Positions 4,328 to 23,733 of a DNA stretch of 64,000 nucleotides are shown here, piece by piece. The translations under genes were made by a program, and so were the position numbers. The notes beneath the pieces are model-generated. The model saw nothing but the letters and a program-made list of their open reading frames with translations, ran no database searches and was not told the DNA's origin. The first letter of the stretch is position 1. Each line of letters starts with the position of its first letter. Source of the DNA: Patescibacteria group bacterium (GTDB lineage Bacteria; Patescibacteriota; Minisyncoccia; Phycocordibacterales; JAKAEA01); assembly GCA_040387855.1 (NCBI GenBank), contig JAZKCY010000001.1, forward strand, positions 189,857-253,856, written 5' to 3'.

Positions 4328-5161
4328 TTACTCTCTAATTCGCTTTGAGAACTCAGGATCGTCTGCAAATTTTAATGCACGTTCATTAATTAAATATTTT
4401 TCGCGTGCTTGTTCTATTGGTAGGTCTGTATCAAGCAACCCTAATTTGTAAGCCAACTTATCCGAAAATCCGGGCATAACAAATGCAAAGCTAAAGGGAA
4501 CTTTGTTGGGAGTAATTGCATTTACATGTTCAACAATATTGGTCGTGCAATTACTTGTAATACTATTGTAAAACTCAGGTTTGTCTTTCAATGTATTAAC
4601 TCTAGTAATAATACTCATAAATAAATCTTGAGCCTTTGCTTGTGTCGTTTTTACTGGATACACATAAACCTGATCTTTTCTATAATTGGATCGTAGTTTT
4701 ACTGCATCACGTTCATCAGCTAAAACGTACATGAGTTCATAACTATTAAAGAGGCCTTTGAATGCAGAAAATTTTTCACCTTGCTCTTTTCTGATTTCTA
4801 CAGATACCGCCAAAAATTGATCGTTCTCAAATTCAAAGCTTAAGAACGTATGGGCTGAGCCAACAAATCCAGAAAATGGTTCTACTATATAATAGACTTT
4901 TTTAAGTTTATTTAGATCAAAAGTTTTATCATAATAATTTGGTGTATAGCTTGTAGTAGATGCATAGGTAAAGTTTCTAATATTATGAACTGAGATAAGA
5001 TTCTCGCGTATTTCTGCATAGGGAAGCACAGCTTGATCAGCATTCCAATTGCGATCGTTTGAAGGTTCCGTGGACCAGTTTACAATAGCAGACACAAGGA
5101 TAATGCTGCTTATACTAATGAGAGCAGAGTACAAAACAATTGAGCGTAGTGTTTTTAACAT
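4328..5161 (-). CDS. hypothetical membrane-anchored protein (DUF4105-like)
   Basis: 277 aa with an N-terminal TM or signal anchor; no catalytic motif recognised. Confidence 0.45.
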   Translation of the reverse strand: MLKTLRSIVLYSALISISSIILVSAIVNWSTEPSNDRNWNADQAVLPYAEIRENLISVHNIRNFTYASTTSYTPNYYDKTFDLNKLKKVYYIVEPFSGFVGSAHTFLSFEFENDQFLAVSVEIRKEQGEKFSAFKGLFNSYELMYVLADERDAVKLRSNYRKDQVYVYPVKTTQAKAQDLFMSIITRVNTLKDKPEFYNSITSNCTTNIVEHVNAITPNKVPFSFAFVMPGFSDKLAYKLGLLDTDLPIEQAREKYLINERALKFADDPEFSKRIRE

Positions 5162-5183
5162 AGATGAGTATAAATAGTATACA

Positions 5184-5786
5184 TTATTTATACATGCATA
5201 CGGTAAAGTCGTGGGGAAGGTAATCTACCATAATATGAACATTGTCAGAGAGCGTTTTACAAAAATCTGAAATCTCATGAGGAGAATATGCCGCATACGT
5301 AGCATCATTGCGATGGGTGGCACTATTAAGCATATTGAATATGAGAGCCTCAGATGAGAGTTCGTACATTCTTTTGATCATGTCTTTATAATACGTATCA
5401 TTGTGTTCAACTTTAAAATTAAGGGATCCAGATGCGAGAACAACATCATATTTTTCTGTCACATCAAAAATGTCTTGAGTTAAAAATGTAGCCCCTGGAT
5501 ATTTTATCTTAGCTTCTTCTATAAACTCAGGAATGATATCTATGCCTGTATATTCAACAGGAATAGTTTTATTTTTTAAAAATAAATAAAGATCGCCAAG
5601 TCCACAGCCTACATCTAGTATCTTTTTATTTCGTAGATCAATGCTTTGTGCAAATACTTCGAAGCGGATATTTTGTGTGTGTGAATCCATCCATTGAACA
5701 CTGCGGGCATCGTTGGCGCCATACTCTTTTAGAGCATCTACATAAAAATCAGAGATTCTTTTTTGATCGGTAGGTGATAAATGCAT
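5184..5786 (-). CDS. class I SAM-dependent methyltransferase
   Basis: Motif I ILDVGCGLGDL followed by an acidic motif II region. Confidence 0.7.
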   Translation of the reverse strand: MHLSPTDQKRISDFYVDALKEYGANDARSVQWMDSHTQNIRFEVFAQSIDLRNKKILDVGCGLGDLYLFLKNKTIPVEYTGIDIIPEFIEEAKIKYPGATFLTQDIFDVTEKYDVVLASGSLNFKVEHNDTYYKDMIKRMYELSSEALIFNMLNSATHRNDATYAAYSPHEISDFCKTLSDNVHIMVDYLPHDFTVCMYK

Positions 5787-6484: not shown

Positions 6485-6522
6485 GCCGTTGTAGCTCAGT
6501 TGGTAGAGCACGTCATTGGTAA
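6485..6522 (+). repeat. duplicated 5' half of tRNA-Thr(GGT) (acceptor, D-arm, anticodon stem and loop) with no 3' half
   Basis: 38 nt GCCGTTGTAGCTCAGTTGGTAGAGCACGTCATTGGTAA, identical to 6645-6682, followed by unrelated sequence. Confidence 0.6.
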
Positions 6523-6644: not shown

Positions 6645-6912
6645 GCCGTTGTAGCTCAGTTGGTAGAGCACGTCATTGGTAAACAAAAATTGCCCTTCAT
6701 TTTGGAAACGAAATGATGAAGCCCGAATTACGGTTAATATCCATTTATATGGACAAGACCGTGGCGAGAAATCGCCCGAACGACTGACAAGGGGCGCTAA
6801 ACCGAAAAGGTATGCGCAAGATACAGTCTAATCCTTCTATAAGCCTTCTGGGGCGAAATTAAGGTATTAATGAATGACGAGGTCGACGGTTCAATCCCGT
6901 CCAACGGCTCCA
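6645..6912 (+). tRNA. tRNA-Thr (GGT) interrupted in the anticodon loop by a ~192 nt intron; CCA encoded
   Basis: The 5' exon is GCCGTTG...CGTCATTGGT(AA). The 3' exon is (AA)TGACGAGGTC-GACGG-TTCAATC-CCGTC-CAACGGC-T-CCA. Together they make a canonical cloverleaf with anticodon GGT. Confidence 0.75.
6681..6872 (+). ncRNA. group I-like self-splicing intron in the tRNA-Thr anticodon loop
   Basis: The exon ends in T and the intron ends in G (omega G). AAGATACAGTCT matches the group I S element consensus AAGAUAUAGUCY, and an upstream GACTG pairs with the CAGTC inside it (P7). Confidence 0.55.
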
Positions 6913-6955
6913 CTAAAAATAAAAACACTGCATAAGATATGTAGTGTTTTTATTT

Positions 6956-7852
6956 ATGAAAGATATAAAGATTTTGGCTCAAAAGTTTTATGATTATTCT
7001 ATTTATATTAGAGGATATTCACCAGAAACAGTAAAAAGGTATAGGCAGATTATTAACTTCTATTGTAGATTTTCCCAGATTACAAATATTGAGCAAGTTA
7101 GTGAAAAGAGTATTCAGGAACTCTTCTTATATGGCAGGACTCAAAGACAATGGCGGACAAATACCCACATTGTTTTTCATATTTCTCTAAATGTATTTTT
7201 CAGATGGTGTATTCAAGGTGGATATATAAAAATAAATCCAACAGAAAATATGGAGGTCCCTAAAGTTGAAAAGAGATTACCGCCCAAACTGACAAAACAA
7301 GATACATTAAAATTACTTGAGGTTGTCTATAATTATCCCTACGATTATAGGTATCTTAAGTATCGTAACCACGCAATATTTTCTACATTTATTTTTGCAG
7401 GACTACGTAAAAAAGAATTATTAGAATTGAAACTCTCTGATGTAGATATAGAAAATCTTACTATCTTTATCCGCCAAGGTAAGGGAAACAAAGATAGGGT
7501 GGTACCAATGACGTATACATTGGCCCAGACTCTTAAGGTATATATGAGTGAACGAAAAAGGCTGAATAAAACATGTCCACATTTCTTTGCATCCCTTAAC
7601 CGTAATATCGGGTTTACAAACATTGGATTAAGGAGATTGGTAAACAAAATCTGTATAGCTTCAGATATAAAGTTTACTATTCATAAGCTTAGACATACGT
7701 TTGCTACTCTTATGCTAGAAGGAGGTTGTGATATTTATAGTTTATCCAAGATGATGGGCCATAGTGACATCAAGACTACAACCATCTATCTCGCTGCAAG
7801 TGCTGAGCATTTGAGAATCCAAATAAGGAAACATCCCTTGAATAATTTATGA
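6956..7852 (+). CDS. tyrosine site-specific integrase/recombinase
   Basis: Catalytic-domain motifs HKLRHTFAT and GHSDIKTTTIYL (R..HxxR..Y) are present. It is adjacent to the tRNA attachment site. A GTG at 6944 lies inside the tRNA terminator hairpin, so the ATG at 6956 is preferred. Confidence 0.85.
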   Translation: MKDIKILAQKFYDYSIYIRGYSPETVKRYRQIINFYCRFSQITNIEQVSEKSIQELFLYGRTQRQWRTNTHIVFHISLNVFFRWCIQGGYIKINPTENMEVPKVEKRLPPKLTKQDTLKLLEVVYNYPYDYRYLKYRNHAIFSTFIFAGLRKKELLELKLSDVDIENLTIFIRQGKGNKDRVVPMTYTLAQTLKVYMSERKRLNKTCPHFFASLNRNIGFTNIGLRRLVNKICIASDIKFTIHKLRHTFATLMLEGGCDIYSLSKMMGHSDIKTTTIYLAASAEHLRIQIRKHPLNNL

Positions 7853-8046
7853 AATCATTGAGCAATTTTATTATTATGTAAAAATGTGTTATCGTTTCCG
7901 TCTTTAGTAATGAATTAAAAGAACTTGTTTTTAAGTCGGGCATTCTGTATACTATAAATGATTATATGGATCAGCTCTCTAATTCAAGTGTAGTAAATAT
8001 TTAGCCAAGATATAATTGGTGGGCTTTTTACTTTAGTTGTAATTTT

Positions 8047-8923
8047 ATGAAAAAATTCATTCAAAAAATATTGACAGGTACTAGATCATCTCAAAATGCT
8101 GATTTGCTTAATGAGTTTATTCAAACACAACAAGATATAAAGAAATTACCTGCCTTTTCTAACTTAGAAAAAGTTCAATTTGATCAAGATGTATCAATCG
8201 GTCATCTTTATTATTCAAGCAAAATAGAAGGTACCCATCTTGATGAAAAACGATTGAATCAAGCAATTCATGCAAAAAGAGTTTGAAAGAGCAACAGGAA
8301 AGACCGATTTGGAAAACAGAGAAGCATCTGGCTTTTGGAAAGCAATTACTTTGTCAAATGATATAGGTCAAGGGGATCAAGAAATTAATCTCGAAGTAAT
8401 TTTAAGTCTCAATCGATGTATTTTAGAGCATGCTATACCAGAAGCAGCTGGAAAACTAAGAGTAACTGGGGAGGATATACTTCCCCTTGAATGTGTAGAG
8501 CCTCCACCTGGATCTATGGTTAGAGAGAAAATGTATCAGTTTGAGAAAGATTTAAAACACAAAATTTACATAGTTCCTTTAAGGTGCCCTAAGCCAAATA
8601 ATCCTAAACACTATAAAAAGTGGGTAGATAGTGTTTTTGACCTTGCAGCATGGGTTCAGCATAGCTTAGTAGCAATACATCCCTTTTCAGAAGGGAATGG
8701 AAGGACTGCACGTCTTATGACTAATATTATTCTCAGAAGATACAATTTTCCTCCAACAGATGTGAAAATTGAATCTGATGACAAAGCAAAATATTTAAAT
8801 GCATTATGTCAAATTGATATGTATACTGATTATAAACCGTTAAAAGATCTGATACTAAAAGGTGCCCTGGCTACATTGCAAAAAGAAAGAGACATGAAAA
8901 GAAGAAAGCAAGCAGGTCAATAA
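8047..8923 (+). pseudogene. Fic/Doc-family protein split by a frameshift in an A5 run (two ORFs, 8047-8286 and 8270-8923)
   Basis: ORF1 carries the Fic N-terminal SSKIEGTHL motif and ORF2 the core HPFSEGNGRTARL. The two frames overlap at CATGCAAAAAGAG. Confidence 0.6.
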
Positions 8924-9101
8924 TTCATGATACCTTATTTTGGGTCGACGTAAGATTCAAGCTTATCTCGACGTCTAAGCTTGTAGTTATGTTGGTTTTA
9001 AAATAGTGTTAGAAATATGGATGTGTGTTACAATCTCTACTATTCTACATACAAATATAAGTACAGTAGCGATTGGAAAAAATTAAAGGTAAAATCAAAA
9101 T

Positions 9102-9464
9102 ATGGGGAATACAGACTTAATTTTACAATGGTCCAAATTAATATCATTGACTGAGGATCAAGTAGATAAACTACCTCAAGATATTGAAGGTGCTTTTCGT
9201 ATATCAAAAAAAGAGGGTGACGATAGATTCTATGTTGTTTTTATTGGCAGTTCTACAGATTTAAAAAAGGAACTTAAAAAATTGATTGCTGAAAAGAAAA
9301 CTAATTTTTTAGAACATAATGGGGAATTCTCTTTTAGATATGCTCCAGTTAAAGGCGTAGAAATAAGAAAGGCTATAGAGAAGCAGTTATATAGACAATA
9401 TGCTCCAGAATATAACTCAAAAGAACCAGAAAGCTCCTTAGATGTAAAAGCCAATCTAAATTAG
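9102..9464 (+). CDS. hypothetical protein, possibly a degenerate GIY-YIG-like domain
   Basis: 120 aa. The spacing GAFRI...(x9)...YVVFIGSS...DLKKELKK...E...YN is reminiscent of GIY-YIG, but the catalytic Tyr, Arg and His positions are substituted. Its stop is directly followed by the ATG of the next gene. Confidence 0.4.
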   Translation: MGNTDLILQWSKLISLTEDQVDKLPQDIEGAFRISKKEGDDRFYVVFIGSSTDLKKELKKLIAEKKTNFLEHNGEFSFRYAPVKGVEIRKAIEKQLYRQYAPEYNSKEPESSLDVKANLN

Positions 9465-10160
9465 ATGACATTAGTTATAGGATTAAAAGCCAAAGATGGA
9501 GTTGTAATCGCCTCTGATAGCAGAGCAAGTTCTACTATCACTAGTAATGATACTGTTCAAAAGATTTTTAAACTTGGAGATCATAGTGCAATTGGTATTG
9601 CTGGTGATGGTGGTTTGGCAATGTACTTTCTTGATCAAATAAGAGCTGGTTTAAATCATGGAACAGGGATTTCAGATTTGGCTGAACAAGTTAGAATAAA
9701 AGGTAAAAACACCTTCAATGACTTTTTCGAACATTTATTGCCAGATAAAAGACCTTCACTTTCTTTGTTATTAATTGGTTATACCACTGATGGTAAGCCT
9801 GAGATGTACACTCTCCAAAGTGGAGACAATTTTGTGCCGAGAAAAGGTGTTACAGGATTTGAATGTATAGGGGTTCCTTATATTGCAGATTATTTACTTA
9901 ATCGTCTTTATGAATCAGATATAAAAATTGATGCAGGGGCAGAGATGTCGGTTTTGTGTATACAAGAGACATCTTCTCAGGATAGAGGTGTCGGAGGTCC
10001 TACTAGAATTGCAACATTTTCTGCGACTAAACAATTTGAAGAGATGTCCAAATCAGATATCGATAAGCTAAAGCAAAAAGCTGAGCAATTTCAGATTAGT
10101 CAAAAGAATCGTTTCTACCCTGAAGATCCAAATTCTGGTATATCTGCGCCTACAGTATAG
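9465..10160 (+). CDS. Ntn-hydrolase of the proteasome beta-subunit/HslV family
   Basis: Begins MTLVIGLKAKDGVVIASDSRAS, so Thr sits directly after the initiator Met. GVVIASDSRAS matches the proteasome/HslV GxVIAADTRxT block, and Asp17 and a Lys near position 33 are present. It is 231 aa with a ~50 aa C-terminal extension. Confidence 0.65.
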   Translation: MTLVIGLKAKDGVVIASDSRASSTITSNDTVQKIFKLGDHSAIGIAGDGGLAMYFLDQIRAGLNHGTGISDLAEQVRIKGKNTFNDFFEHLLPDKRPSLSLLLIGYTTDGKPEMYTLQSGDNFVPRKGVTGFECIGVPYIADYLLNRLYESDIKIDAGAEMSVLCIQETSSQDRGVGGPTRIATFSATKQFEEMSKSDIDKLKQKAEQFQISQKNRFYPEDPNSGISAPTV

Positions 10161-10440
10161 ATGAAAATTTATGGAGTTAAGTTTGGGAACACTTATAAGC
10201 ATTACTCTAGTAGTTAAGCAGAACCATATGCTTTAGATGTTAGAAGGGAATTAAATCAAAACTAGAGCAATCTGGCTTTAAAGAGATATGGCTTACTAGT
10301 TCTATCCCCAAGCTAATATACAAACAGTATCCGTTGTAGACATTTCAGCAATGAATCTATTTGCATATGTAATTCCTGGGTTTTATCAAATCTACCTAAT
10401 ATAACGAAGACACAATAAAATCGTAAGATTTTAACTCAAC

Positions 10441-10818
10441 CTATTTTACCTTTCTAAATATAGAAAACCATTTCCTAGGTATCTTTTGATGGTGTTCAAG
10501 TAGTCTTGATTCGGTAGTAACAGAAGAAATATTTAATTCCTGTAAGACTTTCGGTTCTAAACTATCTGCAATTGAGCGAAAAGCACAAGCTAGGGTTTCT
10601 GTGGTGATCGTTTGATAATAGAATCGAGAACCCTGCTTACGACACTTTACAAGACCTCTTTTGTATAGCTTATTGATGAGTAGATAAACAGTTGGTCGAG
10701 GAATACAAGTGTCTAAGCTCAGGGAGGATAAACTTTTATTTGAAGAGTTAATCGACTGTAAAACAGCGTTCTCTTTATCTGATAATCCAAGAAGGTTTTT
10801 TTGCTCCTCAGTAAACAT
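10441..10818 (-). CDS. small winged-helix DNA-binding regulator-like protein
   Basis: 125 aa with a helix-turn-wing pattern (PTVYLLINKLYKRGLV...GSRFYY). It is oriented divergently from the RHS gene. Confidence 0.4.
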   Translation of the reverse strand: MFTEEQKNLLGLSDKENAVLQSINSSNKSLSSLSLDTCIPRPTVYLLINKLYKRGLVKCRKQGSRFYYQTITTETLACAFRSIADSLEPKVLQELNISSVTTESRLLEHHQKIPRKWFSIFRKVK

Positions 10819-10985
10819 ATAATTTTAGTTCTAATTAGTGTCGGATTTGCTGACATTTAAATTGTCTCACAAATAATCTTTTTCAAATAGATGAGTTATA
10901 CCCTGTATTACTTTTATAAGTTTTAGTATTAAAATTATTTCTACTTTAATCAAGATATAATCAGATTTTGCAAAATTAGAAAATG

Positions 10986-11013
10986 TTGATAGGAAAGTAT
11001 ACTCAGCTATAAC
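10986..11013 (+). promoter_or_regulatory. candidate sigma70-like promoter for the RHS gene
   Basis: TTGATA, 16 nt spacer, TATAAC, about 45 nt upstream of the GTG start at 11058. Confidence 0.25.
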
Positions 11014-11057
11014 ACCTAGCTATACTTTAGGTATTACTTACTCATCTAATAAATTAA

Positions 11058-14000
11058 GTGAACCAATCATTTTCACGGGAGCGACAGGGAAGAAACTTAA
11101 CAAACGTAATTGTTGGGTTACTTATCCTCTCATTAGTTTTTAGTAGTCCATTATTAACATTTGCTCAAAGTGTTGATGAAGCTCCTAGTCAGGCTCCTGT
11201 TGAAACTCCAACAAACTCACCAGCAGTTGATACAAATACTATTCCTCTTGATACATCTGAAATTCAAAATGCGATAGAATATAACAATAATAATCAGGAG
11301 GCTGCATTAACAGAGTCAGCTGAAGATTCACCACAGTCTTTAGAAGCAGAAGAGGACCAAAATATAATTGCACTTCCTGATGATGAGTTACAACCAGACT
11401 CACTATTGTCAGATACAGAGACAGGTGTAGATCGATTTCGTGATCCTTCAGCAAATGTTATTAAAAATCAAATATCCAGAAATTTGGCTGGTGCACTTAA
11501 TTATTCATACCCAATAGAAGTGCCTCCAGGAAGGACACAGGCTACAACTCCAAATTTGGAATTGCAATATTCAAGTAGTCCCGATCTTGCAAATGTGTTT
11601 GGCTATGGTTGGTCAGTTAACATTCCATATATCGAAAGAGTCGGAAAGAGAGGAACAGATAAGTTATATACAGGCACCGATTTTAATTCTTCTCTTACAG
11701 GAGAATTGGCATCAACTTCGGCAACAACCTATATCTCCAAAATTGATAATGGAGATTTTTTGAATTACACTTTTCAAAATAATATATGGACGGTTACTGA
11801 TAAATCGGGAAATCAATATACGTTTGGTTCAACAACAGCTGCAAGACAGGATAATGTTGCTAGCTCTACACAAGTTTATAAGTGGATGCTTGAAGATTTT
11901 AGAGATACAAATGGTAATTATATTAAGTATCAGTATTCTAAAGATTCTGGACAAATATATCCTTCATCAATTATTTATTCAGGAAATAATACAACAGACG
12001 GGCCATTTGAAGTTGCTTTCAGTCGAGAGTCTCGAGCTGATGTCTCAACTTCAACACAATCAGCGTTCAGTGTTGTTACAAAAGATAGAATTAATGAAAT
12101 TCAAACAAAATTTAACGGTGATTGGGTAAGGAAATATACACTAGCATATAGTACAGGCGATAATACTGTTCGATCCATATTAACCTCAGTGACACAATCT
12201 TCACGGGATGATTTACTTACAGCTACAACTACACTTCCTGCAACCACATTTACGTATTCAACTTCAACATTATCTTATTCACAAAGTTCTGCTTTTCAAC
12301 CTCCTATATCACTTAATGAAGCTTTTACTGATCCCTATTTCATGAACACTGGGGTAACTGATTATGGCTTGAAGATTGTTGATATAAACGGCGACGGATT
12401 AACTGATATTCTTCAAGCATTTGGTGCTCGATACGGTGGTTCTTGGACAGTTGAATATCACGCCTATATAAATAACGGGAATGGGTACACTGATACACCC
12501 TCTTGGTATTCTCCCGTGGATTTTATGATACAGGCTCAGGATGGTTATCGAATTGACACAGGTGTGGTATTTGAAGATATAAATGGGGATAAATTACCAG
12601 ATCTTATTCAGTCAAGTGATGGTACTCATGGTTGTGGTTGTTTTGGTTCCCCTTGGATTGAACCTGTAAAAAAGGTATATATAAATACTGGATCTGGTTT
12701 TGCAACGAGTACCGATTGGGTTATACCAGTTTATTTTGTATACAACGCAACACAACAACATACTAGAGATCTAGGTGTGCGAATGGCTGATGTTAATGGT
12801 GATGATTTACCAGATATTCTTGAAGGCCGCACTTATTCAAATGGTTCAGGAGGTACAACAACAGTTAAAAATGTATTTATTAATACTGGAACAGGTTTCG
12901 CTACATCAACAAGTTGGACTCTGCCTGTAGATTTTGTTGATAGCTGGAATCAAAATCGTGGTAATCCCTACCAAGATCTTGGAGTTAGAATTGTGGATAT
13001 TAACTCTGATGGTCTTAATGATATTGTAGAATCGAGCTGCCTTTCTAATGGATCAGTTTACCGTAAGAAAGCATATATAAATTCTGGTACTGGTTTTGTT
13101 GATGATCCAACATGGCATCCTGCTTTATGTTTTGTTACGAGAGATCCTGCCACACCTAACACTTATAGTCTGGTTAATTACATGGATGAGGGGGTACGAT
13201 TTATGGATATCAATGGTGATAGTCTTGTGGATTTTTATAAAAGTACAACTAACGATGCTACTGCGACCTCTACTGCTTATCTAAATACGGGAAAAGGTTT
13301 TAGTTTGCTTAATTCATGGACCCCTGCAACATCAACAATTTATGCATCGGGAAATGATAGAAATGATCGTGCAACGAGATTTGTTGATATAAATGGTGAT
13401 GGAAGAACAGACGTTTTGCAAGGAAGAGGTGATGTGTATCCTAGTCTAAGATACGCATACTTAAGTGCTTCAACAACTCCAGATTTGCTTATAAAAGTTC
13501 AAGAGCCACAGGGTGGTATGACATCAATGTCATACAAAATGTCTGCTCAATACAATAATGCAACCTCATCAAATCCGAATCTCCCACTTAATGTTCGAAC
13601 TGTTGAAACAATTGCTACTAACAATGCCTTTGGAATAGTGGGTACAACTACATATGCATATAATGGAGGACTCTTCTATTTCAATAATGCATTTGATAAG
13701 AAGTTTGCAGGTTTTGCATCAACAACTGAAACTGATGCTGTTGGGAATCTAACAAAATCTTATTTTCACCAGGGGAGTACGACTGATTCAAGTCATGGTG
13801 AGTATCAAGATGATGCTTCAAAAATTGGTAAAGCTTATCGAATTGAAAAATATGATAATGCCAATAATCTCTATCAGAAAATAATTAATAAGTGGGATAA
13901 GTCTGCTCTTTCTAATGGAGCAAACTTTGTGAAGCTTACCCAAACGATTAATTCTGCATATGATGGAACAGTAAATCATAAAGACAAGGCAGAGCAGTAT

Positions 14001-17000
14001 ATATATAATGATGCCGCTGGAACACTAACTCAAAAAATTCAACTCGGAGAGGTCACGGGTAGTGATGATGGTACCCTCTCGGATACTGGTGCAGATTTAT
14101 TTACAACAACAATAACCTATGCTACCAGCTCTCCTATAATTATTCCTGCTACTGAGATCATGGTAGATCAGAGTTCAGTTAAAGTTGCTGAGGTTCGTCA
14201 TTACTATGATACCCTCTCTTTGGGAAGTGTGACAAAAGGTAATAAGACAAAAATTGAAAAGTGGAAAGTAAGTAGCTCATATGCATCTACCACGCGGACA
14301 TTCAATGCTTATGGTCTTGTAACACAAGAACTTGATCCCCGAAGTAAGGCAACAAACTATGTATACGATATATATAATATGTATCCAGCAACAAGTACAA
14401 ACGCATTAAGTCAATCCACATCATATGTATACAATTACCTAGTTGGTAAAGTAAAACAGGTAACTGACTCTAACGGTTTGGTAAATCAAACTACTTATGA
14501 TGGATTCGGAAGAGTTACAGAAGAAAAGCAACCTGATCTTACAACTCCTTCAACTCTAGTTACAAAAGCAACATATGCGTATACAGACACAGCATTACAA
14601 ACAAGTGTTCATAAGGTAAATTATCTTTCTGCATCAAGCACTACAAATTCCTATAATTACTATGATGGATTAGGTAGATTGATTCAAGAACGAAAATCTG
14701 CAGAGGGAACTAATTATTCAGTCAGTGATACTATTTATAATTCTCTTGGTCTTAAGGCTTCACAATCACTCCCATATTTCTCAACTGGTTCTGCAAGTAC
14801 AACCCCAACGGCAACAACAGCACTTTATACACGGTATACGTATGACCCATTACAGCGAGTGAAAACAGTTGCCAACATTGTTGGTACAACTACAAATACA
14901 TACACACCTTGGGTGGTTCATGTTGAAGATCCTCGATATAAAGCAAAGAACTATTATCGCGATGCATATAATAACCTCATAAAGGTTGATGAAATTGATG
15001 GAGTGACAGGATATGCAACTGAATATCAATATAACGGTTTGGGTAAACTTACAAAGATCACTGATGGACTAGCAAATGTGCGTAACTTTACCTACGATGG
15101 ACTTGGAAGAAGATTAACAGCACAAGACCTTCATGCATCAGCTGATACAACATTTGGAAGTACAACCTATGCATATGATGATGCTGGAAACCTAACTCAA
15201 AAAATAGATGCAAATAATCAGACTGTGAATTATACCTATGATGATCTCAATAGACCACTAACTGAAAATTATACAGGTGCAGTAGGAACTGAAATAAGCT
15301 ACGGATATGATTCTTGTGTTTATGGAGTGGGAAGATTATGTAGTGCTACAACAACTGATGCTATTACTCAATATGAATACAACACTGAAGGATTACAGAG
15401 TAAAGAAACAAAAACTTTAAATGCAGTTAATTATATTACTCAGACTCAATATGATCGACAGGGTAATGTAACAAACATTGTATATCCTGATAGTTCACAA
15501 GTTGCATACACGTATAATACTGGCGGTCTTCTAGAAACAGTCTCACGAAAAGAAAGTACTGATGGAGGATTTACTAATGTGGTGACAAATTATGACTACT
15601 CACCATTAGGTCAGGTTACTGCTATTGCATATCAAAATGGAGTGCAAACTACAAACACTTATGATGCAAATGAACTCTACAGATTAAGAAGTAAAGTAAC
15701 TACAAATGCATCAAGTACCAATCTTCAGAATATTGCTTACACCTATGATGCCGTAGGAAATATCACTGGCATTACAGATACTTCAGCAACAAATGGAGCA
15801 AAGACAGCAGTTTATACTTATGACGATCTTAATCGCTTATCATCAGCAACTGTAACTGCTTCAAGCACCAGTGGAGGTAGTTGGTACAACTCATCATGGG
15901 GATACCGAGTTCCAATAACTGCAAGTTCTTCTAAAGTTCTTGAAGACATTAAGGACGTATATGTACCACTCTCATCATTACCATCAGGTTTCTTTGCAAA
16001 TGCAAAATCAGATAGTTGTGATATTCGAATGACAAAAGCAGATGGTACTACTGAGCTAGCAATAGATTTAGTATCTGCATCAACAACTGGTCAGCTGCAT
16101 TTCTCAACAGGGAATAGTCTCTCAACTTCTTCAAGTACAATCTTCTATCTTTACTACGGAAACCCAAGTGCAAGTTGTTATGCCTCAAATGCTACCTACG
16201 GAGCAAACAATGTGTATGACTCAAATACAAAGGGAGTATGGCATTTAGAGCAAAATTCAGCCTCTACAGGAGCAATTGTAGACTCAACCTCAAATGTTCA
16301 TCATGGAACTATGTATTCAAATTATTCAGCAAATGCAAACGGAACTACAACTGGAAAACTTGGAAGTGCAGCAGTCTTTGATGGTACAAATGACACTATC
16401 GATGTCCCAGACAGTTCAGACTTTGAAGGTGCTGCGACAACTATTGAAGCCTGGGCATACATGGATACACTTCCAAGTGTAAAGGGTGAGAATGAAGTCC
16501 TAGTTACAAAGAAGCATGGATCATCACCATGGAGATCATATGCTGTTATGTTTTCAAATCCTGAAAATAGAACTGATGGTAATTGGAATAATAGTTCAGG
16601 AAGTACAGGATATGCTGGTACCTATGCAGGATCAGTATCAGCAAATGCATGGCATTATGTAACCCTACGACAAAATCCTTCAGATACCTCAAGTGAAGTA
16701 TCTGTGCGAACCAATGCTTCAAATGCTACAACATATACCGCCGATACTGATGGCACTACTTACAATTCAAATGATGCTCTACGTTTTGGTGCAGACTATG
16801 CTGGTGGAGAACGACTTGATGGAAACCTAGATGAAATCCGAATTCACAATGTTGCTCGAAGTGATAATTACATCACTACTCGATACAACAACATGAATGC
16901 TCCTTCAACATTCTGGAGTGTTGGATCACAAACTGCAGCTGCAACATCTTCAAACACAAGTTATACAGAAAACTACACTTACAATATTCTTGGAAACATA

Positions 17001-18281
17001 CTTACTAAGACAGGCGCAGCTGGTACATATGCATATACTGGTAGTTCAACAGGCTATGCAAATCCTCATGCGGTGACTGCGATTGGATCTGATACCTATG
17101 CATATGATAACAATGGAAATCTTACTTCGGCTCCAGGAATCACTAACTTATGGGATTATCGAAATCGATTAACACAATCTGTCGCTACGAGTACCGTGAC
17201 CTATGCGTACGATCATGCTAATAGTCGAATTAAATATTCAGTAGCATCAACTACAACCTCTTATCCAAATAAGTTCTACAATACAACAGGTGCAACCACT
17301 ACAAAGCACATCTTTGATGATAGAGGTCAGATGATCGCTACACTTGAAGGCTCAAATGCAAGTACAACGGTTCATTATACTCATACTGATCATCTTTCTG
17401 GATCAAATGTTATTACGAATTCATCTGGTATCTTAGAACAATTGACGGATTACTATCCTTACGGTAATGTTCGCTTAGATGAAAGGACTGGAGCGTTTAA
17501 TGAGCAGAGGAAGTATGCAGGTAGTGAGTTTGACGGTGATACAGCGTATAACTATATGCAAGCTAGGTATTATGATAGTAATAGTGGAAGGTTTATTTCT
17601 CAGGATTCTATATTTCTTAATATGGGAAATGAAAATGACTTCCTTTCTGATCCTCAGCAACTAAATAGTTACAGTTACGCGAGAAACAATCCATTAAAAT
17701 ACTATGATCCTGATGGTAATCAGACAGTATCGGCTCCTCTTAATGCAGTTTTTCGATTTTCAGGATCAGCTAGTCTTGCGCAATCACTTGCAATGGCCGA
17801 TGCTATTCTTGCTGGGGGTTCAATTGCGGGTGCAATCGTCAGTGCTGGACCTGTGTTAGTGGGAGGGGGTATAACTGCTGTTCTCGTTTATGCTGTTGTT
17901 ACTACACCTTGGACACCATTAAGTCAAAACCAAAGTACTCCTTCGTTTTCTAGTTCTTTATCACCAACAAGTCTTCCAACCGCAAATTCAAATCCTCTTT
18001 TGGGAACTGGTACAACAGCTGATTTTGGTAATTGGTTTAATTCAATAAACTTATCAAAAACAACAATTACACAAAAACCTGGTAATTTTAACGATGCACA
18101 GAGAGATTTTTGGGCAAGAAATCCAGAGAATGTGCAACATCGACCAAATGGTACAATTACTGGAAATTTACCAAATGGTGACAAAATAAATGTAAGACCA
18201 CAAAGTAGTGATGGTCGACCTACAATTGAGATTCAGAAAGAGGGTGGTGGAGTAGAAAAAATAAGATATGGAAATAAATAA
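11058..18281 (+). CDS. RHS/YD-repeat polymorphic toxin (2407 aa), built as signal peptide, SpvB/TcdB-N-like domain, FG-GAP/beta-propeller repeats, YD-repeat shell with an inserted DUF2341/LamG-like module, RHS core with a DPxG motif, and a variable C-terminal domain
   Basis: N-terminal signal peptide; a SpvB-like block (NVFGYGWSVNIPYIERV); seven VDINGDGLTDIL-type repeats; many YD repeats (YTYDGLGRRLT, YAYDDAGNLTQK, YTYDDLNRPLTE...); LDGNLDEIRIHNVARSDNY (LamG); and the RHS core ...RYYDSNSGRFISQDS...NNPLKYYDPDGNQ. Confidence 0.9.
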   Translation: MNQSFSRERQGRNLTNVIVGLLILSLVFSSPLLTFAQSVDEAPSQAPVETPTNSPAVDTNTIPLDTSEIQNAIEYNNNNQEAALTESAEDSPQSLEAEEDQNIIALPDDELQPDSLLSDTETGVDRFRDPSANVIKNQISRNLAGALNYSYPIEVPPGRTQATTPNLELQYSSSPDLANVFGYGWSVNIPYIERVGKRGTDKLYTGTDFNSSLTGELASTSATTYISKIDNGDFLNYTFQNNIWTVTDKSGNQYTFGSTTAARQDNVASSTQVYKWMLEDFRDTNGNYIKYQYSKDSGQIYPSSIIYSGNNTTDGPFEVAFSRESRADVSTSTQSAFSVVTKDRINEIQTKFNGDWVRKYTLAYSTGDNTVRSILTSVTQSSRDDLLTATTTLPATTFTYSTSTLSYSQSSAFQPPISLNEAFTDPYFMNTGVTDYGLKIVDINGDGLTDILQAFGARYGGSWTVEYHAYINNGNGYTDTPSWYSPVDFMIQAQDGYRIDTGVVFEDINGDKLPDLIQSSDGTHGCGCFGSPWIEPVKKVYINTGSGFATSTDWVIPVYFVYNATQQHTRDLGVRMADVNGDDLPDILEGRTYSNGSGGTTTVKNVFINTGTGFATSTSWTLPVDFVDSWNQNRGNPYQDLGVRIVDINSDGLNDIVESSCLSNGSVYRKKAYINSGTGFVDDPTWHPALCFVTRDPATPNTYSLVNYMDEGVRFMDINGDSLVDFYKSTTNDATATSTAYLNTGKGFSLLNSWTPATSTIYASGNDRNDRATRFVDINGDGRTDVLQGRGDVYPSLRYAYLSASTTPDLLIKVQEPQGGMTSMSYKMSAQYNNATSSNPNLPLNVRTVETIATNNAFGIVGTTTYAYNGGLFYFNNAFDKKFAGFASTTETDAVGNLTKSYFHQGSTTDSSHGEYQDDASKIGKAYRIEKYDNANNLYQKIINKWDKSALSNGANFVKLTQTINSAYDGTVNHKDKAEQYIYNDAAGTLTQKIQLGEVTGSDDGTLSDTGADLFTTTITYATSSPIIIPATEIMVDQSSVKVAEVRHYYDTLSLGSVTKGNKTKIEKWKVSSSYASTTRTFNAYGLVTQELDPRSKATNYVYDIYNMYPATSTNALSQSTSYVYNYLVGKVKQVTDSNGLVNQTTYDGFGRVTEEKQPDLTTPSTLVTKATYAYTDTALQTSVHKVNYLSASSTTNSYNYYDGLGRLIQERKSAEGTNYSVSDTIYNSLGLKASQSLPYFSTGSASTTPTATTALYTRYTYDPLQRVKTVANIVGTTTNTYTPWVVHVEDPRYKAKNYYRDAYNNLIKVDEIDGVTGYATEYQYNGLGKLTKITDGLANVRNFTYDGLGRRLTAQDLHASADTTFGSTTYAYDDAGNLTQKIDANNQTVNYTYDDLNRPLTENYTGAVGTEISYGYDSCVYGVGRLCSATTTDAITQYEYNTEGLQSKETKTLNAVNYITQTQYDRQGNVTNIVYPDSSQVAYTYNTGGLLETVSRKESTDGGFTNVVTNYDYSPLGQVTAIAYQNGVQTTNTYDANELYRLRSKVTTNASSTNLQNIAYTYDAVGNITGITDTSATNGAKTAVYTYDDLNRLSSATVTASSTSGGSWYNSSWGYRVPITASSSKVLEDIKDVYVPLSSLPSGFFANAKSDSCDIRMTKADGTTELAIDLVSASTTGQLHFSTGNSLSTSSSTIFYLYYGNPSASCYASNATYGANNVYDSNTKGVWHLEQNSASTGAIVDSTSNVHHGTMYSNYSANANGTTTGKLGSAAVFDGTNDTIDVPDSSDFEGAATTIEAWAYMDTLPSVKGENEVLVTKKHGSSPWRSYAVMFSNPENRTDGNWNNSSGSTGYAGTYAGSVSANAWHYVTLRQNPSDTSSEVSVRTNASNATTYTADTDGTTYNSNDALRFGADYAGGERLDGNLDEIRIHNVARSDNYITTRYNNMNAPSTFWSVGSQTAAATSSNTSYTENYTYNILGNILTKTGAAGTYAYTGSSTGYANPHAVTAIGSDTYAYDNNGNLTSAPGITNLWDYRNRLTQSVATSTVTYAYDHANSRIKYSVASTTTSYPNKFYNTTGATTTKHIFDDRGQMIATLEGSNASTTVHYTHTDHLSGSNVITNSSGILEQLTDYYPYGNVRLDERTGAFNEQRKYAGSEFDGDTAYNYMQARYYDSNSGRFISQDSIFLNMGNENDFLSDPQQLNSYSYARNNPLKYYDPDGNQTVSAPLNAVFRFSGSASLAQSLAMADAILAGGSIAGAIVSAGPVLVGGGITAVLVYAVVTTPWTPLSQNQSTPSFSSSLSPTSLPTANSNPLLGTGTTADFGNWFNSINLSKTTITQKPGNFNDAQRDFWARNPENVQHRPNGTITGNLPNGDKINVRPQSSDGRPTIEIQKEGGGVEKIRYGNK

Positions 18282-18771
18282 AAATAAATCAAATATTCTA
18301 ATGCCAGAAAAATATAGTAAATGGGAACCAATTCAGGGAATCGAATCCGAACTATGGATAGAAGCACTTCACGATGACTACGAAGGCTTGCGAATTATAG
18401 TTAAGGGTACTAATGAGGCTTCGGCTATGTATAGTATACTTTTTCCAAATTATTATACATATCGTAATACTGATGAATCGTATCGACTCAAGCTTTGGGA
18501 AGAAGGTGAGTTTGAAGACCGTAAGTGGTCACTCTTTTTCATTAAAGCATCAAAATTTATAGATTGGGTTCATGAAGAAAGTGATACTCTGTATAAAAAA
18601 GAAGATATGATGCATTACTTGATTAAGACAGGAGCTGATGTGATTGAAGTTGTCACGAATGGTATCGAACCAAAAGTTATAAAACTTCACGAAAAGGTTC
18701 AGTCTGACCTAGAATCTAATTCATTAGTTAGAAGAGGTAAAAGAGGTAGCTATTTTGATAAAATTGATTAA
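18268..18771 (+). CDS. putative cognate immunity protein for the RHS C-terminal toxin
   Basis: 167 aa cytoplasmic-type ORF that overlaps the RHS stop by 14 nt (translational coupling), which is the canonical toxin-immunity arrangement. Confidence 0.5.
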   Translation: MEINKNKSNILMPEKYSKWEPIQGIESELWIEALHDDYEGLRIIVKGTNEASAMYSILFPNYYTYRNTDESYRLKLWEEGEFEDRKWSLFFIKASKFIDWVHEESDTLYKKEDMMHYLIKTGADVIEVVTNGIEPKVIKLHEKVQSDLESNSLVRRGKRGSYFDKID

Positions 18772-18787
18772 GTTGTGGCCACGGTGA

Positions 18788-18964
18788 AGGTTATATGTCG
18801 CAGCAGTCCTTTACCCACTACATAGTGATCATCTATCTGGATCAAGTATTGTATCAAATGTTTCAGGAAGTATTGAAGAACTTTCAGATTATTATCCATA
18901 CGGAGCTATGAGAATTAGTGATCAGTCTGGATCATTTACTGACCTAAGAAAATATGTATTTTAA
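18788..18964 (+). pseudogene. orphan RHS core remnant (displaced C-terminal fragment)
   Basis: Translates to ...LHSDHLSGSSIVSNVSGSIEELSDYYPYGAMRISDQSGSFTDLRKYVF*, homologous to the HTDHLSGSNVITNSSGILEQLTDYYPYGNVRLDE core of the full-length gene. No start codon, and it ends before a DPxG motif. Confidence 0.6.
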
Positions 18965-18984
18965 TTTCATTAATAAAACATATT

Positions 18985-19431
18985 ATGCATCCATACGAAT
19001 ATAATTTAAGTTTCAGTCTTGTACATCCAAAGAAGAAATTAAGTGAGTTATATAATAGAATTAGTGAAGTTTCTGGATTTTATCCTCGACGAATTTGGAC
19101 TGCAGGAGATAAACGAAAGACCCAATCGGGAGAAGATCTGGAAGGAACATACAAAGAATCATACTGTTATTTTGCTCTAAATAATTCTTTATTAAAAAGT
19201 TCAGAAATTCGTTTGGAAAATAGTCTTGAAGAAGTCTTAGAGAAGCTTTCAGTTTTGAAAAGAGAATTCAAAGAATTTGTTGACGAGGATGGAGTTTTAG
19301 AAATAACCGTTGGGTTTTACGTTGATTCAAATTCTGCTGGAATATTTCATTTTGAATTACTTAGAAAATTCTGTGATTTAGGAATTGGCTTAACTCTTGA
19401 TGTATACTCTTCAGTTAATGAGATGAAATAA
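18985..19431 (+). CDS. hypothetical small protein, candidate orphan immunity protein
   Basis: 148 aa immediately downstream of the RHS core remnant. Acidic, with no TM; the size and context fit an immunity-gene array. Confidence 0.4.
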   Translation: MHPYEYNLSFSLVHPKKKLSELYNRISEVSGFYPRRIWTAGDKRKTQSGEDLEGTYKESYCYFALNNSLLKSSEIRLENSLEEVLEKLSVLKREFKEFVDEDGVLEITVGFYVDSNSAGIFHFELLRKFCDLGIGLTLDVYSSVNEMK

Positions 19432-19434
19432 TTC

Positions 19435-20004
19435 ATGAAATACAAAGTTGAAAGACCCCCATTAACAGGAAACTTTTTCTTGCCTTCAAAAGAAAGTTTA
19501 GTTGAACTTAAACCAGGCAATCTTGTCAAAATTATGATTAGACATGAAGAAGAAGGAGTAGAAAGAATGTGGGTAAAAATAATACAACAGCAAGATATTT
19601 CAGAATGGACTGGGGTTTTAGATAATGATCCTGTAGGTGAAAAAATGAGTGGATTGTTAAAAGCAGGAGATATAGTAATATTTCATCCTCTGGATATCAT
19701 TCAGATCTGGGATGATAAAAAAATTACAAACTGGGAATTTAAAGAAGCAATAAATGCCAGAGTGTTTACTACTCCAGAAATAGCTTCGGGTATAAAACCT
19801 GTTTTATTTGCAATACATGAATTAGATGGCGATTGGCAGTTTTTGCCATCTGAAAAAACTGAGGATAAAAACGCAATTTTTATCCCTTTGAGGTACTTAA
19901 TTGAAAATGATAATACTTTGTCTGAATTGGGTAATCTACCTGTGGGATGGCACGCAAAACGAAAAAGTATTGAGGATTCGTGGATTAGAGAAAGTGAAAA
20001 ATAA
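19435..20004 (+). CDS. DUF2314(YegJ)-like protein, candidate immunity protein
   Basis: 189 aa with ERMWVKI...GVLDNDP, resembling the ERMWVxV...GxLxNxP pattern of DUF2314 proteins that recur in polymorphic-toxin immunity arrays. The start is 3 nt after the previous stop. Confidence 0.45.
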   Translation: MKYKVERPPLTGNFFLPSKESLVELKPGNLVKIMIRHEEEGVERMWVKIIQQQDISEWTGVLDNDPVGEKMSGLLKAGDIVIFHPLDIIQIWDDKKITNWEFKEAINARVFTTPEIASGIKPVLFAIHELDGDWQFLPSEKTEDKNAIFIPLRYLIENDNTLSELGNLPVGWHAKRKSIEDSWIRESEK

Positions 20005-20119
20005 CCTTAACTATATATTTAAATTTTTTATTGCATTAATAAGCGAAAAATTTGACTTGACCCTAATTACTACCTCACATTCAGGTAGACCAAATCCTTA
20101 ATAATAATAATTAACTGAT

Positions 20120-20425
20120 ATGTATATTAAAAAACAATTAGAGGACGGTGGAAATAAAATAATATGGAAAGGCAATGTGTCTTTTCCTGAAAAAATGATT
20201 AATATAATAAGTAAAATAGATACTCGAATTTATCCATTATTAAAAGGGATCGCATCTTACGAGGATACTTATTTTAATTCACAACAGACAAAGGATCTCA
20301 TTGAAGAACTTCAATCGTTTAAAGATTCACTTACTGATGAAAAGGATAAAGAGGAAATAGAAAGCTTAGTAAAATTCGCTAAGGATATAGATATGCAGGA
20401 ACATTTGGTTTTTGTAGGTGATTAA
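20120..20425 (+). CDS. hypothetical small acidic protein (immunity-like)
   Basis: 101 aa located within the immunity-like gene run. Confidence 0.35.
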   Translation: MYIKKQLEDGGNKIIWKGNVSFPEKMINIISKIDTRIYPLLKGIASYEDTYFNSQQTKDLIEELQSFKDSLTDEKDKEEIESLVKFAKDIDMQEHLVFVGD

Positions 20426-20545
20426 ATGCTGTCTAGGTGTTGACCCATTAATTTAAGGGAGGTTGTGCATAAAAATAAATGGCAAATTGTAGAAAAATCT
20501 AATTTGTAAACATACTCTTTTCTATTAGTTTGCTAGAATAAAGTT

Positions 20546-22026: not shown

Positions 22027-22126
22027 GTTGATGACTATAAGTATCTATACTCCTACTCTACCACAATTATAATGATACTTATAGTCCGTCGCCTTAAAGT
22101 CATCATCACAATACCCTTAAGGTATT

Positions 22127-22351: not shown

Positions 22352-22522
22352 AGAGAATGGAATTATACACATAGTATCAACACATGTTCTTTGACATGAA
22401 ACAGGTTGTTGATACTATATAAATATAACTAAATAGAAAAAAGCTCAGTGAGATGGCTTTCCAGGTTACATAAAAACATGTAACAAGAAAGTTTATCGCT
22501 GGGCTTTTTTTGTGGAAAAAAT

Positions 22523-23659: not shown

Positions 23660-23701
23660 TTGGTAATGACGAGGTCACCGGTTCAATCCCGGTCAACGGC
23701 T
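23660..23701 (+). repeat. partial tRNA-Thr 3' segment (anticodon loop through acceptor), the attR-like direct repeat
   Basis: TTGGTAATGACGAGGTC-ACCGG-TTCAATC-CCGGT-CAACGGC-T is intronless and has compensatory T-stem changes relative to 6873-6909. There is no 5' half upstream. Confidence 0.65.
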
Positions 23702-23733
23702 CCCGTAATTAATTTTAACGAACTATTAAATAT

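Follow-up and report, generated by a model that had tools for sequence, protein, structure and literature searches.

A gene for a proteasome-type Ntn peptidase and, directly upstream of it, a gene for a small GIY-YIG-fold protein form a conserved pair, which in the window (the whole stretch of 64,000 nucleotides analysed here) is carried on an integrative island in tRNA-Thr. The reading that we prefer, and to which we give about an even chance, is that the two proteins make up an accessory, mobile module, and that the GIY-YIG-fold protein acts in it, in this lineage, as a non-catalytic, dedicated partner of the peptidase. The relevant features of the window are as follows.

6873..6916, + strand: 3' half of tRNA-Thr(GGT), attL-like left direct repeat (direct-repeat family D4), directly before the integrase gene
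6944..7852, + strand: tyrosine integrase (PF00589, E 1.1e-31), given as context, outside the conserved cassette
9102..9464, + strand: GIY-YIG-fold partner gene, 120 aa (NCBI MES2436600.1, V4519_01185)
9462..9467, + strand: stop-start junction TAG-ATG, gap 0, read from the sequence
9465..10160, + strand: proteasome-type Ntn peptidase gene, 231 aa (NCBI MES2436601.1, V4519_01190); the protein begins MTLVIGLKAKDGVVIASDSRAS
23665..23708, + strand: 3' half of tRNA-Thr, attR-like right direct repeat (direct-repeat family D4), 86% identical, preceded by anticodon-loop bases

The Gene Pair and Its Island

The partner ORF ends with TAG at 9462–9464 and the ATG of the protease gene follows directly at 9465, just as the first-pass annotation of this DNA had placed the abutting stop and start of the 120-aa and 231-aa ORFs. 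The junction as read would fit translational coupling and production of the two proteins in equal amounts. The protease has homologs in more than 250 protein clusters and the small partner ORF in 20 close clusters, and purifying selection acts on both genes. Since these conserved homologs and the purifying selection are joined by adjacency in all 97 loci that hold both genes, the pair is more than a chance arrangement. Chance ORFs are ruled out by the conservation, the selection and the predicted structures. No protease-partner fusion proteins were found among the homologs of either family.

The pair rides a 16.8-kb integrative island in tRNA-Thr. The direct repeats of the tRNA-Thr 3' half (6873–6916 and 23665–23708) bracket it and enclose about 16.8 kb with the integrase, a Fic gene, the gene pair and an RHS gene, which bears out the mobile-island location proposed earlier. 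The first-pass annotation had also tied the pair to its Fic and RHS neighbors. This part did not hold, as elsewhere the cassette sits between housekeeping genes and only the pair itself recurs.

The Downstream Gene Encodes a Proteasome-Family Ntn Hydrolase

The 231-aa protein belongs to the proteasome family of Ntn hydrolases. It matches Pfam PF00227 over profile positions 7–186 of 189 with 74 bits (cut-off 22.4; E 1.6e-20). In a MAFFT alignment with Thermoplasma acidophilum beta and E. coli HslV, T2 (the mature Thr1), D18 (Asp17), K33 and G47 of the protease align with their counterparts, and the GxVIAxD N-terminal block runs parallel to that of the proteasome and HslV. In a PDB sequence search, too, residue 2 falls on the first residue of the mature beta chains from Rhodococcus and M. 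tuberculosis. All 60 unique relatives have Thr1, Asp17, Lys33 and the oxyanion-hole Gly47, and 53 of them keep the Asp166 equivalent (D173). The protease has no propeptide, and Thr1 follows the initiator Met. The first-pass description of a Thr1 Ntn hydrolase without propeptide, including its N-terminal block and the residues Thr1, Asp17 and Lys33, is therefore supported by the PF00227 match and by formal alignment. According to the MAFFT alignment, Ser129 of the canonical catalytic beta subunit is replaced by Ile and Ser169 by Val. Because these two supporting residues are not conserved, peptidase activity of the protein is a prediction.

The AF2 model of the protease (pLDDT 83, pTM 0.81) shows an alpha-beta-beta-alpha sandwich with helices H1–H4. 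The C-terminal extension noticed earlier is seen as a further helix, H5 (residues 196–217), together with a conserved QKxxFYPED motif; SxDNFVPRK and GFECIG(I/V)P are the other signature motifs of the family. The top 50 Foldseek PDB matches of the model are all 20S subunits, with E-values down to 1e-12 (TM 0.81 for T. acidophilum beta and 0.77 for M. tuberculosis beta). The PDB sequence matches are 20S alpha and beta subunits with approximately equal similarity.

Comparison With Known Proteasome Homologs

The protease family shares with 20S alpha and beta subunits the Ntn alpha-beta-beta-alpha fold, Thr1, Asp/Glu17, Lys33, Gly47 and the C-terminal helix H5, and it is about equally similar to both. 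Its scores with the NCBIfam equivalog models are, however, far too low (TIGR03634, 51 vs. 224 bits; TIGR03690, 38 vs. 192 bits; TIGR03633, 41 vs. 287 bits). It differs from the 20S subunits in lacking a propeptide, an alpha-subunit gene, a Pup, Mpa or PAN neighbor, and conserved Ser129 and Ser169, and in having motifs of its own and a GIY-YIG-fold gene as partner. A bona fide 20S subunit was rejected on account of the scores far under the equivalog cut-offs and the missing gene for the other subunit.

HslV and the present protease are both bacterial Thr1 proteasome-family proteases in which the GxVIAxD block aligns, but the protease has 231 aa and helix H5, whereas HslV has about 175 aa. The label HslV-like, used in the first-pass annotation, had to be given up, because the protease is closest, in sequence as in structure, to alpha and beta subunits of archaeal and bacterial 20S proteasomes, with no match to any HslV family. 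HslV/HslUV was likewise rejected as an identity, with no HslV model among the NCBIfam matches at E ≤ 1, none in the top PDB matches and no hslU in any locus. The observation that an HslU or alpha-subunit partner is missing holds more widely: no AAA+ ATPase, hslU or second PF00227 gene (alpha subunit) lies next to the pair in the loci and window ORFs checked.

Anbu and BPH resemble the present family in being stand-alone bacterial proteasome homologs without a known ATPase, and an extended C-terminal helix is a feature of Anbu too. Neither of them is among the top 50–60 PDB matches of the protease by sequence or structure. The operon partners of Anbu are reportedly ATP-grasp, transglutaminase-like and Alpha-E genes (Valas and Bourne, 2008; Fuchs, 2017). 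All of these are absent from the flanks of 22 distinct loci, and the Anbu operon was rejected.

The many proteasome homologs that have been catalogued in prokaryotes have no known function. In the main survey, the uncharacterized ones include WPH (Widespread Proteasome Homolog) and PMI-3; informative genomic context was reported for none of the new families, and many proteasome homologs may function without dedicated ATPases (Fuchs, Alva and Lupas, 2021; PMC8665760). Compared by description only, WPH (published representative WP_040339656.1) and the present protease are both prokaryotic and ATPase-less, and have in common similarity to alpha and beta subunits, no propeptide and a long C-terminal helix (PMC8665760). 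The PMI-3 representative (OGZ26396.1) belongs to the same accession series as the Candidate Phyla Radiation (CPR, = Patescibacteria) members of the present family, but PMI-3 is described as having long insertions, which are absent from the AF2 model of the window protease. In contrast to the families of that survey, with no informative context, the present family comes with a partner at all loci examined.

The Partner Has a GIY-YIG Fold and an Eroded Active Site

The AF2 model of the partner (pLDDT 83) has the GIY-YIG alpha/beta fold. Its top Foldseek PDB match is the UvrC GIY-YIG domain 1yd6 (probability 1.0, target TM 0.75), on which it superposes with an rmsd of 2.5 Å over 92 columns, and it also matches phage GIY-YIG endonucleases in BFVD. 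The window partner itself gives no match to Pfam PF01541 at E ≤ 1. A profile of the partner family reaches relatives with E-values between 1e-24 and 1e-8, among which are proteins above the PF01541 threshold (P0149 with 27.2 bits vs. 22.6). The GIY-YIG-like nature of the upstream ORF, first suggested from motif spacing, is thus borne out by the predicted fold and by transitive sequence homology. The protein consists of one domain, about 120 aa long, with a catalytic core of about 95 aa, to which an N-terminal (LxWSKL) and a C-terminal (VNLN) strand are added; a DNA-binding module is absent from the AF2 model. Among members of the GIY-YIG superfamily it stands out as a single-domain protein without such a module that is dedicated to a protease gene.

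The order and spacing of the motifs are kept relative to UvrC, and the partner has Glu93 and Asn105 where UvrC has Glu76 and Asn88. In contrast, Tyr19, Tyr29, Arg39 and Tyr43 of UvrC are replaced by Phe, Phe, Glu and Leu. The catalytic hexad of the window partner thus reads F32-F47-E57-L61-E93-N105, with four of six positions replaced, so that the full catalytic set is not present. Mapping on UvrC and on the family alignment confirms the earlier statement that the catalytic Tyr, Arg and His are replaced. The accompanying term degenerate is right for the clade of the window but not for the family, as in sister clades the complete set Y-Y-R-H-E-N is present, in half of the partners (30/60). One such pair is formed by the Lloydbacteria protease OGZ06653.1 and the gene upstream of it. 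Between these extremes lie intermediate partners with YFKHEN or YYKHEN, and the window clade has FFELEN or YFELEN.

The dN/dS of the partner is ∼0.17 in the degenerate (window) clade and 0.13 in the intact clade, and ∼23 partner positions show a conservation of 90% or more over all clades. Invariant partner residues include W10, R33, S35, D40, R79 and N118. Because the window partner retains Glu93 and Asn105 as well as the invariant Arg33 and Arg79, some residual nuclease activity is possible.

Pairing Across Related Loci

The partner lies directly upstream of the protease in 97/97 loci with both genes (72 unique proteases), and in 92/92 of the loci whose upstream DNA extends for 400 nt or more. 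Over the 72 unique loci the intergenic gap ranges from −4 to +13 nt, with modes of +1, 0, and −4, apart from one truncated partner copy at +66. Nearly all of the paired loci come from Patescibacteria. The pairwise identities of protease and partner co-vary (r = 0.85). When the ORFs flanking 22 distinct loci were compared by all-against-all BLAST, only protease and partner recurred, together with antisense shadow ORFs, and no third conserved component or conserved neighborhood was found in these loci.

Looking for the same pair elsewhere, as had been proposed, recovered it in varied contexts. In other genomes it sits between dnaN and PBP, between S9 and grpE, between rpoC and ftsK, or between PPase and tig-clpP. 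One further copy lies amid serine recombinases and PrimPol and Toprim genes, and others adjoin restriction-modification genes. The integrase is not a recurrent neighbor of the pair elsewhere. Remote relatives within the small GIY-YIG family, looked at in archaeal, plasmid-like and further contexts, have no proteasome gene paired with them, and a distant proteasome homolog on a Planococcus plasmid has no GIY-YIG partner.

Possible Function of the Pair

A toxin, defense or regulatory role of the pair, as first proposed, is possible. In the accessory-module reading the pair would be an obligate two-protein cassette. Thr1 would be exposed merely by removal of the initiator Met, without propeptide or autolysis step, and the protease would probably form a self-compartmentalizing oligomer acting without an ATPase. 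The partner, whose synthesis the abutting stop and start would tie to that of the peptidase, may bind the latter in a physical complex as a dedicated adaptor, regulator or cap. The ancestral module probably joined DNA cleavage or recognition to proteolysis, since the sister clades keep the complete Y-Y-R-H-E-N set, although the median pI of the partners (∼6.7) is atypical for a DNA-binding protein. With its eroded F-F-E-L-E-N center, the partner of the window clade is most likely no more than a non-catalytic subunit. As a whole, the cassette, found almost only in Patescibacteria, would be an accessory module moving horizontally. The tRNA-half repeats around the island, the copy amid recombinase genes, the copies beside restriction-modification genes and the low number of loci in an exact-pattern genome scan speak for this, but several copies among core genes (dnaA-dnaN, ribosomal proteins, grpE, tig-clpP) fit a housekeeping role as well.

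An extended form of this proposal, which we regard as unlikely, is a nuclease-protease holoenzyme in which GIY-YIG-fold subunits, as a ring or cap, stand in for the alpha ring or ATPase of classical proteasomes and link the 20S-like peptidase to nucleic acid. Such an enzyme might remove DNA-bound or DNA-crosslinked proteins, or attack invading DNA-protein complexes, and lineages like that of the window would have kept the architecture and dropped DNA cleavage.

The core-gene neighbors lead to the question of whether the protease is an ordinary ATP-independent enzyme that clears unfolded peptides, with the partner as an assembly or gating factor and the island as an incidental location. Strong purifying selection on both genes and the invariant catalytic residues of the protease agree with such a proteostasis role, as do neighbors like trigger factor and ClpP, GrpE, rpoBC, ftsK and recA, and ATPase-free function has been argued for many proteasome homologs (Fuchs et al., 2021; PMC8665760). 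We nevertheless consider it unlikely. Synteny is not conserved, and an exact-pattern scan of 185,579 species-representative genomes gave only 19 loci, a count that is a lower bound, so that a sporadic distribution is not rigorously established by it. The window copy lies inside an island with att-like borders and another copy in an element with recombinase and PrimPol genes, and the intact nuclease site in half of the partners would be left unexplained. That same intact site, the full hexad in 30/60 partners, is what speaks for a conflict module (toxin-antitoxin, abortive-infection or defense) in which the protease restrains or activates a toxic GIY-YIG nuclease, or the reverse, and of which the window version is decayed or repurposed. 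Neighbors such as MmeI-type restriction-modification, NYN, SocA/Panacea, a methylase-Mrr fusion and AbiEii, the Fic and RHS genes on the window island, and the autonomy of a two-gene unit with its own AT-rich promoter region point in the same direction. Yet the PADLOC defense models gave no match for the window partner and only a weak one for the protease (PycC, E 0.023), no viral contig or phage record was found to carry the pair, and the nuclease-dead clade keeps both the pairing and purifying selection, which is hard to square with the nuclease as essential effector. A conflict module seems to us an improbable explanation.

The resemblance of the partner model to phage GIY-YIG homing-type endonucleases, the many different sites between conserved genes at which the cassette is found and the gradient of catalytic decay among partners would all suit a selfish element. 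The small ORF would then be, or have been, a free-standing homing endonuclease spreading with the protease gene, and its erosion would be decay after fixation. We hold this to be very improbable, because there is no DNA-binding domain beyond the ∼95-aa catalytic core, the partner accompanies the protease in 97/97 loci, unlike the sporadic genes of homing endonucleases, and the stop-start coupling is tight. In the decayed clade, moreover, selection is still purifying, and many non-catalytic positions are conserved.

In the literature we found no report linking GIY-YIG to a proteasome homolog or Ntn hydrolase, and none linking proteasome-like proteins to the CPR. With a dedicated partner of an unexpected kind, a GIY-YIG-fold protein, in every testable locus, one uncharacterized family of proteasome homologs gains its first functional lead. 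Among the partners there is a natural gradation, with intact catalytic sets at one end and dead ones at the other, and the pair bears on how proteasome-like proteases are regulated without ATPases or alpha rings. For the mobile genes of Patescibacteria, a pool that is poorly understood, it is one more candidate accessory module. Should the two proteins not interact, the finding shrinks to a new protease subfamily beside a small nuclease gene.

Some minor observations concern the surrounding DNA and the distant relatives. Upstream of the pair, AT-rich −10-like boxes were seen, as judged by eye; no other common operator or promoter motif was noticed 5' of the pair, and a promoter/terminator scan was uninformative. 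Distant GIY-YIG relatives of the partner gave only weak local matches to PDC-S14 in PADLOC. No Rfam match to a group I intron was obtained for the split tRNA-Thr, and the insert in it is strongly structured.

The gene pair and its protease

Two genes of the window make up the pair:
9102-9464, + strand, partner gene, ORF of 120 aa
9465-10160, + strand, protease gene, ORF of 231 aa with the N-terminus MTLVIGLKAKDGVVIASDSRAS

The two ORFs abut directly, as had been claimed in the first-pass annotation: the TAG stop of the former is followed without a gap by the ATG of the latter. Public records identical to both products (MES2436600.1 and MES2436601.1) are each named "hypothetical protein", on a 981,549-bp contig of a Patescibacteria MAG.

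The protease matched the Pfam Proteasome family PF00227 over nearly the full model (74 bits, E = 1.6e-20). Its NCBIfam matches were to the models for bacterial beta and for archaeal alpha and beta subunits, each scoring far under its equivalog cut-off; no HslV model was matched. The best 60 matches in a PDB sequence search were 20S alpha or beta subunits only, with an archaeal alpha subunit at the top (3.7e-9), and the alignments to the mature beta chains of Rhodococcus and M. tuberculosis placed protease residue 2 on their residue 1. The AF2 model (pLDDT 83) has a proteasome fold followed by a long C-terminal helix (196-217), which accounts for the C-terminal extension noted earlier. Its top 50 Foldseek matches in the PDB were all 20S subunits (T. 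acidophilum beta, TM 0.81; M. tuberculosis beta, TM 0.77). The earlier HslV-like label is thus not retained, and the NCBIfam scores likewise rule out a bona fide 20S subunit.

An alignment of 25 relatives included the beta subunit of T. acidophilum and the HslV of E. coli as references. In this alignment Thr1, Glu/Asp17, Lys33 and Gly47 of the references correspond to T2, D18, K33 and G47 of the protease, so the proposed reading of Thr1, Asp17 and Lys33 holds, and these positions are unchanged in all 60 unique relatives. The family does not conserve the Ser129 and Ser169 found in canonical beta subunits; the Asp166 equivalent is retained in 53 of the 60. The motifs SxDNFVPRK, GFECIG(I/V)P and QKxxFYPED are invariant and peculiar to the family. 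Taken together, the database matches, alignment and model identify the protease as a 20S-like proteasome homologue, predicted from its sequence to be a Thr1 peptidase with an invariant triad. In agreement with the first-pass annotation there is no propeptide, and Thr is residue 2. Since Thr as penultimate residue permits Met excision, no autolysis should be needed to expose the nucleophile.

A GIY-YIG fold in the partner

The partner had no match in Pfam, NCBIfam or PADLOC, and none that was significant among PDB sequences. An alignment of 20 homologues gave the pattern GV(Y/F)RIS...FYVVFIGS...FSFRYAP...AIEKQMYKQYAPxYN. The AF2 model (pLDDT 83) shows a beta-beta-alpha-beta-alpha core with additional strands at the N- and C-terminus. 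Its best Foldseek match in the PDB was the UvrC GIY-YIG domain 1yd6 (probability 1.0, target TM 0.75, rmsd 2.5 Å), and phage GIY-YIG endonucleases were matched in a viral structure library. UvrC GIY-YIG chains matched the partner family profile weakly but in register (E 0.13-0.5). Scanning all 1.84 billion representatives with HMMER gave 159 relatives, a wider family of stand-alone ~120-aa proteins of which several score above Pfam GIY-YIG's own threshold. Fold and family link therefore agree with the earlier GIY-YIG call. The catalytic Tyr, Arg and His are indeed replaced: the first Tyr position is F32, and UvrC Tyr29, Arg39, Tyr43, Glu76 and Asn88 map to F47, E57, L61, E93 and N105.

The wider family is undescribed. 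Its members share an N-terminal LxWS and a C-terminal (V/I)NL motif, and some were found without the protease in archaeal and plasmid-like contexts. In 21 aligned intermediate members, the equivalents of UvrC Arg39 and Glu76 are usually retained or lost jointly. Very distant small GIY-YIG relatives had no adjoining proteasome homologue in the contexts examined.

An obligate two-gene cassette

Related loci were collected from exact-protein look-ups, a species-representative genome scan and a metagenome scan. The latter two gave 19 loci among 185,579 genomes (an exact-pattern scan, hence a lower bound) and 73 loci, respectively. With HMMs of both families, the partner was found directly upstream in 92 of 92 loci in which the N-terminus of the protease was covered and the sequence extended 400 nt or more upstream. 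Both genes lie side by side in 97 loci, representing 72 unique proteases, and the pair is thus an obligate two-gene cassette. The intergenic gap is -4 to +13 nt (modes +1, 0 and -4), apart from +66 for a single truncated partner. L034, the locus that diverges most, has a partner with a disrupted N-terminus. Pairwise identities of partner and protease are correlated (r = 0.85). An all-against-all comparison of flanking ORFs from 22 distinct loci gave no recurrent family beyond the two genes.

Flanks of the pair at different loci
nusA and H+-PPase / pair / tig-clpP
pair among resolvases, PrimPol and Toprim
rpoBC / pair / ftsK ... AbiEii, recA
MmeI-type restriction-modification / pair / NYN
dnaN / pair / PBP
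pair / S6
S9 / pair / grpE
methylase-Mrr / pair
pair / HNH-AP2

By record titles, nearly all cassette loci belong to Patescibacteria groups. Some MAGs (L016-L034) are titled Gammaproteobacteria, Planctomycetota, Bacteroidia, Ignavibacteria or archaeon, which may stem from errors in binning or labelling or from true transfer beyond Patescibacteria. The cassette was not found in the viral contigs and phage records searched. On a Planococcus maritimus plasmid (NZ_CP101821.1; L108, 3001-3690), xerS adjoins the gene for a 229-aa "hypothetical protein" (N-terminus MTVLMGFKTEDGVVFTAD), a distant homologue of the proteasome family (29% identity over 136 aa) that has no GIY-YIG partner. On a Berkelbacteria chromosome (OY969116.1; L032, 5001-5772) the partner is intact and the protease homologue is divided between ORFs 5001-5600 and 5524-5772, which overlap, owing either to a sequencing error or to decay into a frameshifted pseudogene.

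Erosion of the nuclease centre under purifying selection

The six GIY-YIG catalytic positions (hexad) were read in 60 unique full-length pairs, across all of which the protease triad is constant.

Hexad of the partner, number of pairs and protease identity to that of the window
Y-Y-R-H-E-N (complete): 30 pairs, 49-62%
Y-F-K-H-E-N or Y-Y-K-H-E-N: 9 pairs, 57-77% (8 of 9 at 68-77%)
F/Y-F/Y-E-L/I-E-N: 14 pairs including the window, mostly 72-100% (three pairs 60-65%)
Other single variants: remaining 7 pairs

The nuclease centre thus spans intact to eroded, and an active nuclease was very probably the ancestral state of the partner. Purifying selection acts on both genes in intact and degenerate clades alike, with approximate dN/dS values (dS near saturation) of 0.13 and 0.17 for the partner and 0.05 and 0.08 for the protease, respectively. 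About 23 partner positions, E93 and N105 among them, are at least 90% conserved over all clades. This selection and conservation despite an eroded hexad indicate that the partner keeps a conserved role that needs no intact nuclease centre.

Possible roles and novelty of the cassette

Protease and partner may be produced in equal amounts via stop-start coupling and bind each other in a complex, in which the partner would act as adaptor, regulator or cap and, in the window's clade, would be non-catalytic; the cassette itself would be accessory and mobile. We regard this reading as evenly poised. At two or more loci the cassette rides integrative elements, and no ATPase or alpha partner accompanies the pair in the loci examined. 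A role in housekeeping proteostasis seems unlikely to us; the cassette matched few of the species-representative genomes. We also consider it rather improbable that the nuclease is the effector of a toxin-antitoxin or defence module, and very improbable that the partner is a decaying homing endonuclease with cargo.

The protease superfamily is known and the family already visible in databases, one Lloydbacteria member being named "Proteasome subunit beta" in UniRef. By description only, the protease recalls the WPH group (PMC8665760): similar equally to alpha and beta subunits, without a propeptide and with a long helix H5. That survey reported new proteasome homologues without informative genomic context or co-occurrence (Fuchs, Alva & Lupas 2021), and our searches found no literature linking GIY-YIG proteins with proteasome homologues, nor any on proteasome-like proteins in the Candidate Phyla Radiation (Patescibacteria). 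The new element is therefore a proteasome homologue with a dedicated nuclease-fold partner.

The island in this genome

In this genome the pair lies on a 16.8-kb island (6873-23708), delimited by direct repeats of a tRNA-Thr 3' half:
6873-6916, + strand, tRNA-Thr(GGT) 3' half, left repeat (direct-repeat search), immediately preceding the integrase gene
6944-7852, + strand, tyrosine integrase gene (Pfam)
23665-23708, + strand, second tRNA-Thr 3' half, right repeat (direct-repeat search), 86% identical to the first

The proposed mobile island is therefore real here, but with flanks that differ by locus it is not the cassette's general home. Besides the integrase gene and the pair, the island contains a Fic gene, a TrmB-like HTH gene, the gene for a 2407-aa RHS-type protein and, at 18.2-23.5 kb, several small ORFs. 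No AAA+ unfoldase was found among the window ORFs scanned against Pfam, in line with the absence of hslU noted at first.

The Fic gene is seemingly split into overlapping ORFs, 8047-8286 (79 aa, the N-terminal part, which includes an SSKIEGT motif) and 8270-8923 (217 aa, with the Fic domain; PF02661, E = 4.7e-12; PADLOC PDC-S04 and SoFic matches), and is possibly frameshifted or a pseudogene.

The tRNA-Thr(GGT) gene is also apparently split, with near-identical 5' halves (6485-6522 and 6645-6682), both spanning acceptor stem to anticodon loop, and ~192 nt between the second of these and the 3' half. ARAGORN called no tRNA at this site, and the insert had no group I intron match in Rfam. As at the borders of group I introns, U would be the last base of the 5' part and G is the last base of the insert. 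In the 275-nt stretch the tRNA arms are retained, and the sequence folds much more stably than its shuffled versions (z = -4.7); this could be a tRNA gene with an intron or the remnants of successive integrations.
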